Assembly (NCBI GenBank): GCA_963682135.1
Contig: OY821645.1
Span: forward strand, 576,001 to 640,000
From: Methanothrix sp.
GTDB taxonomy: Archaea; Halobacteriota; Methanosarcinia; Methanotrichales; Methanotrichaceae
Direction of reading: 5' to 3'
DNA length: 64,000 bases
The notes beneath the pieces were generated by a model. That model was not told the DNA's origin and did not search any database. It saw only the letters and a list, made by a program, of their open reading frames with translations. The position numbers were made by a program, and so were the translations under genes. This document shows positions 15,640-21,080 of this stretch, in pieces (the stretch's first letter is position 1; the number at the start of each line of letters is the position of its first letter).

Positions 15640-16300
15640 GCCGACCGGCCTCCTGCTTTCTGCAAGAGCGATTGCTATGCAATCCATCCCGCCCTGGCGA
15701 CATCGCCGCAAGCTCTGACGGCCCGGCCCACGGGCAGCGGCCACGAGCCCGCCCGAGATGCCGAGACGCGGCGATGGGCTGACGGGGCGCGGCTGCCGGT
15801 GGCCCCGCAAGAATCGCCAAGCCGGTCTTCGTGCGTCCTTTGTGTCTTCGTGCCTTTGTGGTTGGCCCGTTGCTGCTTGGTTATAATTATCAGCTAATAA
15901 TAACCGCAAGTCGCCGCAGTTTCCAATAGTCCAGCCCCCTAAAAAGCCGCCCAGCCGGTTACCGGCTCCACCTGGCACGATCGCTTACCAGGCAATCCAG
16001 CCCGCCCGGATGACATTGCAGCAAGCCCGGGCGGCCCGGCCCGCAGGTGGCAGCCACAAGCCAGCCCGAAGAAACGACGCGACACGGGCGATGAGCTGAC
16101 CGGGCGCGGCTGCCAGCAGGCCCGCAAGGAATGCTAAACAGAAGATTGCCTTGGACTCTGCCAAAAGTCTCTGTGCCTCTGTGGTTCAGTTCGTAATTGC
16201 TTTGATTATCAGCTAATAGTAACCGCAAATCTTCATTATTTCTCAAAATCCAGCACCCACAAAGACCGCCTAATCGGAAGCCAGCTCAGCCCGACATCAG
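15640..16300. repeat. GC-rich repeat block 1 (about two units; dyad cores at 15879-15905 and degenerate 16199-16224)
   Basis: Shares gcgatgggctgacggggcgcggctgccggtggcc, ctttgtg motifs, ttataattatcagctaataataacc and agccggtnaccggct with blocks 2-4. Confidence 0.9.
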
Positions 16301-16566
16301 GTCCGACCGCCATCCTACGCTCCTGAGCGAGCGCGTTTGCATATGGGGGCACCAGTCAGCAACGTAGCGCTGGATGGCAGGCCCAATGATGGCAAGGATG
16401 GATATATTCTGGCCTGACCGGAGCCCTTCATCAGTTATCAGATGATAATATATTATATAGTAATATTTATATTTAATATATACTAACTTAGATTAGGTAA
16501 ATCTTAAGAATCGTGTTTATAACTACATGTCAATGTTCTGTTCCGAGAATCGAGTGGTCAAGTCGA

Positions 16567-17679
16567 TCATGTCGCATCACTTTGAAAAAATTCTATCACA
16601 TTTGCCATTATGAAGAAGGAACTGCCAATGATACCTATTACCCCTTTAGGAGATAACTTTATGATTTTAAATATAAAATTTGTAAAATTAATTAGTATAT
16701 TCTCTGACATAGGTGATACATATGTCAAAATCTTTTCTAAAACAAAACCGATAATCAAATTGAAAACAAACCAAAACAATGATGATAAGAATAGATTCCA
16801 TAGTTCATAGCCATGAGGATTATTTAGATTTATATCCCAGATCATGTTGGATGGATCATCAATTTTAATGATAAAAATGAGTATATAAGAAATGATAAAT
16901 ATGGATGTCATAGACACAGTTGCGATGTAACTTTTTATTATAACAAAGGTTGAATAATTTATTTTTAAATTTCTAATTACAGCATTATGTAACAGTTTGA
17001 ATAACTTAAAATATATAATACCTAATAATAAATAAAAAGAAAATCCTATTAAAATAGGGAGGATAACTGAGCACGCATTAATTGAAATATCACCTAGGAT
17101 CGTATTATATATCAGATCCAATGATATATGAAATTTGTATATTATCAAAAAATTTATGAAATAAATAGTTATTAGCCAAAAAACCGTCCTAATATACGTA
17201 TTTATAAATATAGATACAATTCTTTTATATTTTTGAAATATTAAAAATCTTGAAATTAAACAATTAGATAGATAATTTAATGCAAAATACAATATAAAAC
17301 AAATTATTGAATATAAAATAAACATCTCTGAATCTATTGCACCTCTCGGCTTAACTCCAAAATTGTTTAATAATTCTGGTAATGAACTTTTGTAAACTGC
17401 AAAATTCATCATCAATCCTAATACAAAAATCGTTAATAGCCTACTAATATCAGGCGCTTCCCTATTCATTCGGTTGAAAACCAACCTAGTAAAATGATCT
17501 GCTCTCTCATTAAGGCTGTCGATTTGACGTTTATTCAAAAAAAACTCTAGGCCCATCAATAGCCCTGCAAGTAGATTTAATAATATGCGTATTTGGTCCA
17601 ATGACAGAAATGGCATGTTTGACGGATCTAGAATATCTTCCCGTATAAAAAGGATCCGAAAACAGTCCTGGTTTACCAT
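16567..17679 (-). CDS. AT-rich multi-pass membrane protein of unknown function (alternative start 17616)
   Basis: 370-aa ORF with many hydrophobic segments, flanked by repeat blocks. Confidence 0.7.
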   Translation of the reverse strand: MVNQDCFRILFIREDILDPSNMPFLSLDQIRILLNLLAGLLMGLEFFLNKRQIDSLNERADHFTRLVFNRMNREAPDISRLLTIFVLGLMMNFAVYKSSLPELLNNFGVKPRGAIDSEMFILYSIICFILYFALNYLSNCLISRFLIFQKYKRIVSIFINTYIRTVFWLITIYFINFLIIYKFHISLDLIYNTILGDISINACSVILPILIGFSFYLLLGIIYFKLFKLLHNAVIRNLKINYSTFVIIKSYIATVSMTSIFIISYILIFIIKIDDPSNMIWDINLNNPHGYELWNLFLSSLFWFVFNLIIGFVLEKILTYVSPMSENILINFTNFIFKIIKLSPKGVIGIIGSSFFIMANVIEFFQSDAT

Positions 17680-17789
17680 TATATAAATATTTTGATTTTC
17701 TAATATTCGGCCATATTCTCAACTCAAGAGGCAACCATGCAGCTTAATGTCCAACTTCCAACGCGTCCTAGTGCAGGCAAGTTCCCAAC

Positions 17790-18410
17790 AAACGAACCCA
17801 CCTGGCGACTGCATCGCAGTCCACCGCACAGCCCGGTCCACTGGCAACTGCCATGGGACCAAGCCCGAGGCGCGGCGATGGGCTGACGGGGCACGTCTAC
17901 CGGTGGCCCCGCAAGAAGCGTCAAGCCGTTATTTGTGCGTCCTTTGTGAGCTTCGTGTGCTTTGTGGTTTAGCCCGTAGCTGCTAGATTATAATTATCGG
18001 CTAATAATAACCGCAAGTCACCATCGTTTCCAATAGTCCAGCCCCCCTGAAATCCGCCCCGCCGGTGACCGGCTCCACCTGGCACGAGTGCTTGCCATGC
18101 AATCCAGCCTGCCCGGACGACATCGCAGCAAACCCGGACGGCCCGGCCCACAGGTGGCGAAAGAGTGTCCCCTCTCATCGAAGACTTCGCGGCTTCGCGC
18201 CTTCGCGTGAGCCCGTGATCTTTGGCCCGACCGGCCTCCAGCGCCCCCGAGCACGCGCGTGCAGGCAGGCCCACCCGGCGAGCACAGCCCAGCGCGCTCC
18301 GGCCCAACTGGCAGCAGCCACGAGCCCGCCCGAGGCAACGACGCGATGCGGGCGATGGGCCAACGGGGCGCGGATGCCGATGGCCTCGCAAGAATCGCCA
18401 AACTGCAGAG
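17790..18410. repeat. GC-rich repeat block 2 (core 17986-18012)
   Basis: gattataattatcggctaataataacc core with the same flanking modules. Confidence 0.9.
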
Positions 18411-18481
18411 CCACATAAACAAGTTCTATGAAAATGAGATCCGAGAAAAGCCGTCAGGAGCGCCAGTACCGGTTAACAATG

Positions 18482-19289: not shown

Positions 19290-19750
19290 CGCAAGCTCGC
19301 ATGGCCTGGCCCGCAGGATGCGGCTACAAGCCCGCCCAAGGCAACGACGCGATGCGGGCGATGGGCCGACGGAGCGTGGCTGCCGGTGTCTCTGCAAGAA
19401 TCGCCAAGCTGGTCTTTGTGCGTTCTTTGTGAGCTTCGTGCGCTTTGTGGTTTGGCCCGTTGCCGCTTCGTTATAATTATCAGCCAATAATAACCATAAG
19501 TCGCCACAGTTTCCAATAGTCCAGCCTCCTGAAAAGCCGCCCAGCTGGTGACCGGCTCCACCTGGCACGAGCGCTTACCAGGCAATCCAGCTCGCCCTGA
19601 CGACATCGCCGCAATCCCAGACGGCCCGGCCCGCAGGCAGCGAAAAATTGTTCCATCTCATCGGAGACTTCGCGTCTTCGCGTGAGCCCTTGATCTCGGG
19701 CCAACCGACCTCGCCCCCGAGCGCGTGCGTGCAGGCGGGCTTGCCGCACA
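19290..19750. repeat. GC-rich repeat block 3 (core 19469-19495)
   Basis: cgttataattatcagccaataataacc core with conserved flanks. Confidence 0.9.
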
Positions 19751-19903
19751 AACCTCTTTCCAATCGACAAAGGTCCACAAAGAAGAAAAACTTAAAAATG
19801 CGGCGCTCAAATCTGAGCCAGTATCTCCGTTCCCTTATCTATTTAAGTATAGAGCTACCAAATACAGGAATTATATCTGATACCTTGATAGAAAGGAGAC
19901 CTA

Positions 19904-20206
19904 ATGAATCGATTTGAGGACCTGAGGGATAAAGTTTTGCCATTGCTCAGGCCCTACGTTAAGCGCATTGCCGTCTTCGGGTCTTTTGCTCGGGGCGAGG
20001 AGACACCAGAAAGCGACATCGACCTTCTGGTGGAACTAAGAGCCGCAGACAGCCGTCCCCGACTTGGGCTGGCATGGTTTGGCCTGGAAGAAGAGCTTGG
20101 CCGCGTTCTGGGAAGAGAAGTGGAACTTATAGCTGAAGGCTCTCTAAGTCCATATTTGCGACCCTACGCAGAAAAGGATCTGGTTCTGCTCTATGAAGAA
20201 AGATGA
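19904..20206 (+). CDS. Minimal nucleotidyltransferase (MNT) antitoxin
   Basis: VFGSFARGEETPESDIDLLV. Confidence 0.9.
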   Translation: MNRFEDLRDKVLPLLRPYVKRIAVFGSFARGEETPESDIDLLVELRAADSRPRLGLAWFGLEEELGRVLGREVELIAEGSLSPYLRPYAEKDLVLLYEER

Positions 20207-20552
20207 CTCGGTTTATCTTCGCCATATCATGGATGCCTTCATGCAGATAGAGCACTACACCGATGGCGTCTCTCATGAAGAGTTTATGAAAGACAATCTG
20301 ATTCAAGATGGAGTAATTAGACAGCTAGAGGTTATGGGAGAGGCTGCTCGCAATCTATCCGATGACCTGCGTGGCGATTACCCGCATATTCCCTGGCGTC
20401 AGATGATAGGCCTTAGAAACCGCATGATTCACGCTTATTTTAACGTAAACCTGTAGATTATCTGGGAGATCGTTCAAGGGGATATTCCAAATCTAAAGCG
20501 AGAGACGAAGCGCGTGCTTGAGGATATTGGTCAGGAAAGCCGACATATATAG
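20193..20552 (+). pseudogene. HEPN (DUF86) toxin interrupted by an in-frame TAG at 20454-20456
   Basis: YLRHI...[36 protein letters not shown]; RxxxxH motif present and homology continues past the stop. Confidence 0.8.
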
Positions 20553-20604
20553 CGGCAAACGTTTTCCCGGGGCCGGAGTCCTTTAAAGCAGCATCCACGG
20601 CTTT

Positions 20605-21080
20605 AGCGCGGCTGCCGGTGGCCTCGCAAGAATCGTCAAGCCGGTCTTTGTGCGTCCTTTGTGAGCTTGGTGCGCTTTGTGGTTTGGTGCGTTGCTGCTC
20701 CGATATAATTATCAGCTAATAATATCGCAAGTCACCATCGTTTCCAATAGTCCTGCCCCCCGAAAAGCCGCCCAGCCGGTGACCGGCTCCACCTGGCACG
20801 ATCGATTGCCTGGCAAGCCAGCCCGCCCGAAGCAACGACGCGATGCGGGCGATGGGCTGATGGGGCGCGGCTGCCGGTGGGCCCGCAAGAATCGCCAAGC
20901 TGGTCTTTGTGCGTCCTTTGTGAGCTTGGTGCGCTTTGTGGTTTGGTGCGTTGCTGCTCCGATATAATTATCAGCTAATAATATCGCAAGTCACCATCGT
21001 TTCCAAGAGTCCAGCCCCCCGGAAATGCCGCCTAGCCGGTGACCGGCTCCACCTTGGCACTAGCGCTTACCAGGCAATCA
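20605..21080. repeat. GC-rich repeat block 4 (two tandem units, cores 20701-20727 and 20960-20986, 259-bp period)
   Basis: cgatataattatcagctaataatatcg occurs twice with near-identical flanks. Confidence 0.9.

Follow-up and report, generated by a model that had tools for sequence, protein, structure and literature searches.

What is the 27-bp AT-rich dyad for that recurs six times between small toxin-antitoxin and defence genes of a Methanothrix chromosome, and is it the symmetry of this site that matters? The six copies lie between positions 15879 and 20986 of a stretch of 64,000 nucleotides from Methanothrix sp. (contig OY821645.1, positions 576,001 to 640,000 of the forward strand), which we call the window and whose first letter is position 1 of the coordinates given below without a prefix. 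Methanothrix species are among the most important acetate-using methane producers, and their genomes carry many toxin-antitoxin and defence genes. In many species of the genus such genes occur in arrays in which a single genus-specific repeat of ~320 bp recurs, with a near-invariant AT-rich box to which the dyad belongs. A preliminary description of this DNA took the symmetry of the dyad to be under selection and to mark the functional site. The box is kept as a sequence and not as a base-paired structure, and we tentatively read it as a docking site for a protein that would act on the repeat itself.

Conservation of the AT-rich box

The whole window was scanned with a 20-mer core, allowing up to 3 mismatches, and 100 shuffles served as null. 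Six core matches were observed (15883, 16202, 17990, 19473, 20705, and 20964, every one on the plus strand) against 0.00 expected. The six dyad starts named in the preliminary description were thus recovered, and the sequences quoted there match the window DNA. The copies are as follows:

15879..15905, plus strand: dyad copy 1, GGTTATAATTATCAGCTAATAATAACC, 11 of 13 positions pair
16199..16225, plus strand: dyad copy 2, degenerate, left arm mostly gone (5-nt gap in the family alignment A1)
17986..18012, plus strand: dyad copy 3, GATTATAATTATCGGCTAATAATAACC, pair 2 broken
19469..19495, plus strand: dyad copy 4, CGTTATAATTATCAGCCAATAATAACC, pair 1 broken
20701..20727, plus strand: dyad copy 5, CGATATAATTATCAGCTAATAATATCG
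20960..20986, plus strand: dyad copy 6, identical to copy 5, its tandem duplicate at 259-nt spacing

Around the spacer, copy 1 reads GGTTATAATTA-TCAGC-TAATAATAACC, and copies 5 and 6 read CGATATAATTA-TCAGC-TAATAATATCG, so that pairs 1 and 3 are altered on both sides. This change from GGT/ACC to CGA/TCG, described earlier as compensatory, is real; it is confined, however, to copies 5 and 6, which lie inside a tandem duplication (repeat family D2, 96% identity over 161 nt). Because the two copies are tandem duplicates, the change counts as one event and not as two. The outer bases of copy 3 (GAT...ACC) and copy 4 (CGT...ACC) are uncompensated changes, and a half-way form, CGA...TCC, is present in a relative (L116:2479). 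The flanking ttgc...gcaa was confirmed around the dyad.

To place the window copies within their family, 119 distinct copies were collected and aligned with MAFFT (alignment A1). As MAFFT had gapped copies 5 and 6, the pairs were recounted without gaps, dropping 5 of the 119 copies with more than 4 mismatches to the 18-nt core and leaving 114. Over the 119 copies the covariation score, taken across the 11 dyad pairs plus TTGC/GCAA, was 0.112 and the mean of the shuffled alignments likewise 0.112, with 261 of 500 shuffles reaching the observed value; paired cells made up 72.4% of the observed and 72.7% of the shuffled alignment. Watson-Crick pairing at the outer pairs 1, 2, and 3 is seen in 31, 34, and 68 of the 114 copies, respectively, and at all three together in 11 (GGT/ACC in 9, CGA/TCG in 2, the latter being both window copies), while the commonest outer combination is the unpaired GGT/ATA with 27 copies. 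When right arms were dealt to other copies, the mean was 1.174 compared to 1.167 observed. Selection on the symmetry was therefore not borne out once 114-119 copies were compared, and the locus provides a clear example of an apparent compensatory change in six copies that vanishes with more than 100. A modest dyad tendency is real nevertheless: in the family consensus GGTTATAATTATCAGCTAATAGTAATA 8 of 13 positions pair, against 4.3 ± 1.6 in shuffled 27-mers. The window copies, in which 9-11 of 13 positions pair, stand at the most symmetric end of the family.

What the family keeps is the sequence TATAATTnTC-N-GCTAATAnTA, with the family consensus GGTTATAATTATC-N-GCTAATAGTAATA. Positions 4-10, 12, 13, 16-21, 23, and 24 of the 27-mer hold one base in at least 104 of the 114 copies, a conservation somewhat inflated in the core since many loci were fetched with the exact core 18-mer; the outer arm positions lie outside that pattern, and the covariation test on them is therefore unaffected. 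The A:A mismatch of the window copies persists as well (A/A in 109 of 114 copies). In contrast, position 14 at the axis is hypervariable and takes all four bases (70/17/9/18). Against a 448-nt profile of the unit, in which the dyad occupies ~228-254, hits outside the own genome numbered 152 at positions 201-221, 89 at 131, 83 at 401, and 31 at 411; conservation thus peaks at the box and falls off both ways. As the best conserved stretch of the repeat, the 27-mer is very probably a functional site. The earlier claim that the symmetry marks this site holds for the place and fails for the reason given, as it is the sequence that is kept and not the base pairing.

The repeat unit and its distribution in Methanothrix

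Each dyad lies at the AT-rich centre of an intergenic repeat unit of ~320 bp that is GC-rich and composed of modules, and the units of the window are all in one orientation. To the left of the dyad, three to four 9-bp direct repeats CTYYGYGnn in helical phase (iterons) end at a fixed distance of ~17-19 bp; to the right, a conserved box TTTCCAAAATCC follows after 12-14 bp and is succeeded by GC-rich modules. The right flank exists in three length variants. The array is composed as follows, its start having been assigned by eye against the family consensus and being in this sense putative:

15528..15661, plus strand: putative array start immediately following the SIR2-STAND gene; remnant of a dyad in degenerate form (ctGATTATCAaaATAAC) and modules of the right flank, without upstream iterons
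15662..16290, plus strand: units 1 and 2 in tandem, period 313-319 nt, no gene between them; repeat families D5, D6, and D7
15827..15852, plus strand: module A of unit 1, a block of three to four 9-bp iterons (CTYYGYGnn) that stops ~19 nt left of the dyad
15920..15932, plus strand: right-hand box TTTCCAAnAnTCC, conserved, 14 nt past the dyad, with the near-invariant alignment columns C79, A82, A83, and C86
17800..18401, plus strand: unit 3, to which modules B and C are added (CTTCGCG iterons at 18185-18207, GGCCCGACCGGCC); partial next unit
19280..19760, plus strand: unit 4, carrying modules B and C
20590..21078, plus strand: units 5 and 6, short form, period 259; the array ends at 21078/21079 within the right flank

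Module A recurs at 17942-17966, 19414-19440, 20646-20672, and 20905-20931. Modules A, B, and C each match many separate places in the genome and recur apart from one another or in different combinations, as expected of a mosaic repeat, and the genome holds 48 triple 9-mer sites. Small stand-alone elements were also observed, in which triple 9-bp repeats (CTTTGTGnn or CTTCGCGnn) form inverted pairs whose arms measure 24-29 nt and are 83-92% complementary (for example C1:171335-171405, 1270383-1270448, 1958938-1959002, 2814055-2814138, and 2817268-2817372). The left module can occur alone as well: among 91 distinct instances of iterons followed by GGTTATAAT, 85 lead into a canonical dyad and 6 do not, and 3 of these 6 stop after GGTTATAATnATC.

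The genome, a single contig of 3.04 Mb, contains 11 copies of the family core: the six of the window, four at 1.436-1.439 Mb (on the minus strand and likewise between small genes), and one at 463 kb. Further, incomplete units were seen at 938-939 kb and 686-688 kb. The solitary unit at C1:462890-463375 has a complete central dyad and is flanked by 45-bp GC-rich direct repeats (ggcccgcctgRccgccaccgcagcgcagccgggaggg...), which hint at insertion or duplication of the unit through its GC-rich tails.

Beyond this genome, a 141-nt probe detected the family in 18 of 24 other Methanothrix genomes and in none of 16 genomes that represent other genera of this class. Wherever a contig has both the core and its flanks, its label is Methanothrix or Methanotrichaceae; the repeat belongs to this archaeal genus alone. 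Its distribution within the genus is patchy, as is usual for a selfish repeat: no match was scored in the near-complete genomes G020 and G022, one in G005, and 19-24 in each of G012, G015, G016, G019, and G024. In the relatives, too, units stand in the same orientation with pairs of ORFs of 70-130 aa between them. Unit 4 had zero matches in the plasmid collection; 44 viral contigs contain the 18-mer, and 0 of these 44 carry the iteron flank as well. Rfam gave no match, neither at gathering scores across the entire window nor at E ≤ 1 for 15500-21200, and a literature search of titles and abstracts found no description of a ~320-bp Methanothrix repeat.

What the box may serve

We give a probability of about 0.4 to the reading that the box is a double-stranded docking box for a protein serving the spread or recombination of a selfish mosaic repeat. 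As the symmetry is not kept across the family, a protein docking site is likelier than a hairpin or the site of a classic recombinase. On double-stranded DNA the box would be recognised by a protein specific for its sequence and, as the core is half-symmetric, probably dimeric. Possibly together with a second protein on the iterons, this protein would assemble a nucleoprotein complex, which would serve the spread or recombination of the units and not the transcription of neighbouring genes. The two arms would be similar terminal or half-site motifs that face each other (left ...GGTTATAATnATC, right GCTAATAATAACC...), and the partial symmetry would arise from this arrangement and not from a stem kept by compensatory change. 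In a check for terminal inverted repeats, the 13-nt halves matched at 11 of 13 positions in copy 1 and at 8 of 13 in the family consensus, and the stand-alone iteron pairs formed inverted repeats with the arm length given above. Transposon ends, recombinase arm sites, and plasmid origins are usually laid out in this way, with phased iterons next to an AT-rich core. The circle or dimer junctions of IS30 and IS911 and asymmetric transposon ends with subterminal repeats offer a parallel, since there, too, similar terminal motifs face one another over a gap of a few bases, and repeated binding sites adjoin one of the ends; the occurrence of the left motif with its iterons alone is a further likeness. 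The Methanothrix repeat differs from these junctions in that no transposase partner was found for it, its terminal match is weak in the consensus, and a target duplication was unseen at the one element inspected. If the box does assemble a protein that moves or recombines the units, it would point to a new mechanism by which defence genes are reshuffled in archaea; as a purely architectural site it would still be a useful marker of variable islands in Methanothrix.

Several observations weigh against this docking reading. No recombinase or transposase gene stands consistently beside the arrays among the families searched (Y1, rve, IS110, DDE_Tnp_1, PF00589, and PF00239; other transposase families were not searched), and within the same scope no autonomous partner was found that encodes a transposase and has the same ends. 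Breakpoints that avoid the dyad, which the preliminary description had named as evidence against its own reading, are largely what is seen. In hits outside the own genome, alignments against the 448-nt profile end 33 times at 290-309, 23 times at 320-329, and 71 times at 400-419 but only 14 times at 240-259, a pattern that partly reflects the length variants of the right flank; they start 37 times at 130-139, 32 times at 170-179, and 35 times at 310-329. Linkage between neighbouring 24-nt segments is low throughout the unit, with no particular dip at the dyad. As the ends lie mostly elsewhere and linkage shows no dip, the dyad is at most a minor junction, even though a few copies do break within the 27-mer. 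The window array itself ends 93 nt past the end of dyad 6, and the 463-kb unit with its complete central dyad misfits units that would start and end at half-dyads. Among the six left-half-only copies, two (939484 and 1436088) can equally be read as small intra-dyad deletions with a degenerate right flank. No target duplication was seen at one stand-alone element inspected by eye, without a systematic search, and the retrieval by exact 18-mer, as said, flatters the core. One further comparison is ambiguous: the 939-kb array and genome G053 diverge exactly after ...AAT and before CGAACCGG, the right side resembling a degenerate right flank, and this may be a junction or an internal deletion alike. 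Among the public runs (short Logan contigs), X5 is identical to the window. Metagenome joints from 15863 to 18193 or 21110, from 16231 to 18224 or 19582, and from 15943 to 19532 were set aside and no conclusion was drawn from them, because their sides measure 20-57 nt at 88% likeness and several join equivalent positions of paralogous units.

An archaeal promoter was one alternative named beforehand in the preliminary description. One or both AT-rich halves would then be a TATA box, the iterons would serve as an activator site upstream, and transcription of a conserved leader or small RNA would start at TTTCCAAAATCC. The box does share with archaeal promoters, which combine a TATA box with a B recognition element (BRE), an AT-rich block of ~8-10 bp in GC-rich non-coding DNA; its spacing to the conserved downstream box is fixed (~25 nt from the centre of the right half), and of the 5 stand-alone left halves in this genome, 2 precede a co-oriented ORF by 70-90 nt (L174 8236, a glycosyltransferase, and L174 10644, an acylphosphatase). 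The test, however, went against it. From 42 tRNA upstream regions of the own genome a BRE+TATA matrix was derived, which recovers gAAAg-TTTAAAT ~30-40 nt upstream of the tRNA genes and scores its own sites mostly at 8-15 bits, while the median best score of the repeats was 3.4 bits forward and 3.3 bits reverse. These values equal the 99th percentile of genome positions, which is expected by chance from a scan of 76 positions; 3.4% of the copies reached the 99.9th genome percentile, and no A-rich BRE was found at the box. Nor are the units oriented with respect to genes. Downstream of 148 dyad copies, the nearest ORF with homology support runs in the same direction in 51 cases and in the opposite one in 44, with another repeat following in 32 and nothing within 900 bp in 21; these ORFs are supported only by likeness to ORFs of other loci, and some may be spurious. 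The upstream neighbours divide 43 to 38 by orientation. Tandem units without a gene between them, 0 conserved pairs by RNAalifold in 38 right flanks folded on the plus strand, and the lack of an Rfam match point the same way. The units behave as autonomous elements, independent of neighbouring genes, and we consider a promoter unlikely. An architectural or boundary element that is itself immobile would explain part of the same picture: a chromatin or nucleoid protein would sit on the box, and the arrays would grow by unequal crossing-over only. Bacterial interspersed mosaic elements (BIMEs) or repetitive extragenic palindromic (REP) sequences, RIP/RIB units with a central IHF site, and the Correia elements of Neisseria are likewise intergenic, multicopy, lineage-specific, and modular. 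As in BIMEs and Correia elements, the short GC-rich modules of Methanothrix also occur alone or as inverted pairs, and the AT-rich central stretch is putatively protein-binding. The weak linkage of adjacent segments is what gene conversion would give, tandem empty units exist, and a dedicated enzyme gene was not found among the recombinase and transposase families searched. The Methanothrix units are, however, far longer, carry 9-bp iterons, and form same-orientation arrays amid toxin-antitoxin and defence genes; to our knowledge archaea have no IHF, unlike the hosts of BIMEs. The absence of the family from near-complete genomes of the same genus speaks against a host housekeeping role, as does the concentration of units beside mobile toxin-antitoxin and defence genes instead of chromosome-wide, and we hold an immobile element to be quite unlikely.

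The remaining alternatives invoke recombination at the dyad. One, in line with the mention of attC and HUH substrates in the preliminary description, is a bulged hairpin of single-stranded DNA or of RNA, either attC-like or a substrate of HUH (IS200/IS605) enzymes. The pairs GGT/ACC and CGA/TCG, altered on both sides, speak for it, and window copies 1, 5, and 6 are predicted to form hairpins of -7.3 to -7.9 kcal/mol. Over the family this does not hold: single-strand DNA folds of 65 nt around the dyad gave a mean z of -0.20 relative to shuffled sequence, with ~3% of 116 copies below z = -2, and covariation and arm pairing were at the level of shuffles. The seven Y1 transposase genes of the genome are all far from the arrays. 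Apart from one ordinary multicopy DDE insertion sequence 0.6 kb past the second array, the remaining Y1, rve, IS110, and DDE_Tnp_1 genes lie elsewhere, and an IS200 origin was rejected, as the 731-bp IS200 copies end in GC-rich hairpins unrelated to any repeat module. A hairpin substrate is thus most improbable. The arrays do resemble integrons without an integrase (clusters of attC sites lacking integron-integrases, CALINs), as same-orientation sites separate small, toxin-antitoxin-rich accessory genes with no integrase nearby. Yet attC sites keep a hairpin while their sequence varies, and the Methanothrix box keeps its sequence and not a structure; the array genes, moreover, run in both orientations (51 versus 44), the repeat measures 320 bp, and ends fall mostly off the dyad. 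The available part of a preprint on archaeal integrons (bioRxiv 10.1101/2022.02.06.479319) makes no mention of Methanothrix.

A tyrosine recombinase core site in which inverted arms enclose an overlap of 6-8 bp, served by the host XerA or by an integrase, would make the arrays comparable to dif modules or integron cassettes. Same-orientation sites between swappable toxin-antitoxin cassettes, conserved arms around a variable position 14, and the few copies that break inside the 27-mer would fit. The iterons may also be likened to arm-type sites. In Acinetobacter plasmids, pdif sites flank toxin-antitoxin and resistance modules, and both dif and pdif, like the dyad, are short imperfect inverted repeats. 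The geometry proposed earlier (10-7-10, with a spacer of 6-8 bp) is contradicted by the variable centre, which is a single base, so that the dyad is 13-1-13 or 11-5-11. The outer arm bases are unpaired in most copies, the outer arms failing to pair in full in ~90%. Published accounts (PMC8371274 and PMC2958812) describe dif, the site of XerC/XerD and of archaeal XerA, as 11-nt inverted arms around a 6-nt spacer, present once per chromosome; set against this published description, not against a dif sequence, the box with its 11 chromosomal copies differs clearly. No full-length tyrosine recombinase was found with PF00589 in the 99.9%-complete genome, although a divergent XerA could escape this search, and no tyrosine recombinase gene lies within ~300 kb of the window array. 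One PF00589 frame without internal stops, of 185 aa, covers the C-terminal catalytic half alone (C1:912397-912954, corresponding to L231 997-1554); two other matches are broken genes with internal stops. No serine recombinase was found with PF00239. Together with the alignment ends elsewhere in the unit and the viral contigs, none of which carries the family flank, this makes a tyrosine recombinase core site very unlikely. A last possibility is that the box is the joint or crossover site of an undescribed, integrase-free cassette-shuffling system in Methanothrix, driven by an unrecognised kind of recombinase or transposase. The ~320-bp units, with their phased iterons and half-symmetric core, would then capture and reorder toxin-antitoxin and defence genes as an archaeal functional analogue of integrons or pdif modules; we regard this as doubtful.

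Genes in and beside the array

The genes between and next to the units are the following:

12133..15504, plus strand: SIR2-STAND NTPase gene, 1123 aa, left neighbour of the array; Pfam SIR2_2 and nSTAND3, PADLOC SIR2-type models
16567..17679, minus strand: AT-rich ORF of 370 aa without family match, between units 2 and 3
18862..19143, minus strand: small ORF of 93 aa, inside the cassette 18498-19194
19904..20456, plus strand: MNT-HepT toxin-antitoxin pair (MNT, a nucleotidyltransferase), flanked by units 4 and 5
21079..21170, plus strand: hicA remnant, its 5' end cut where the last repeat unit stops

The SIR2-STAND gene has a GC content of 29-38%, far below its surroundings, and is probably a recently acquired defence gene. 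Arrays of two other genomes (L080 and L105) contain the cassette 18498-19194 at 77% identity, and the MNT-HepT pair is found again at 78% identity in L126 and L035. In the relative L116, units are shared at 81-90% identity, and among the matches listed none falls in gene segments. The content of the arrays turns over while the units persist.

No empty site can be defined for the window array, because leuS and feoB are not adjacent in G005, G020, G022, G024, and G012. As in the window, leuS is followed within a few kb by arrays in at least three other Methanothrix genomes (G024 C5:147782-162553; G012 C3:38738-52388; L162), which suggests that this location is a conserved hotspot for arrays. The LeuRS protein is of archaeal type.

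The HepT ORF (20193-20456) meets an in-frame TAG after 87 aa, at which point positions 3-99 of the 120 of the Pfam profile are covered and the frame seems to go on; judged from these letters, the gene is probably broken. An intact hicB-hicA pair stands at the equivalent point in six other Methanothrix loci at 88-96% identity, unusually conserved for such arrays, and the hicA remnant of the window departs from the intact gene after ~90 nt. Further to the right, at 21505-21690, a 93-bp tandem duplication (94% identical) lies inside a 373-aa minus-strand ORF without family match.

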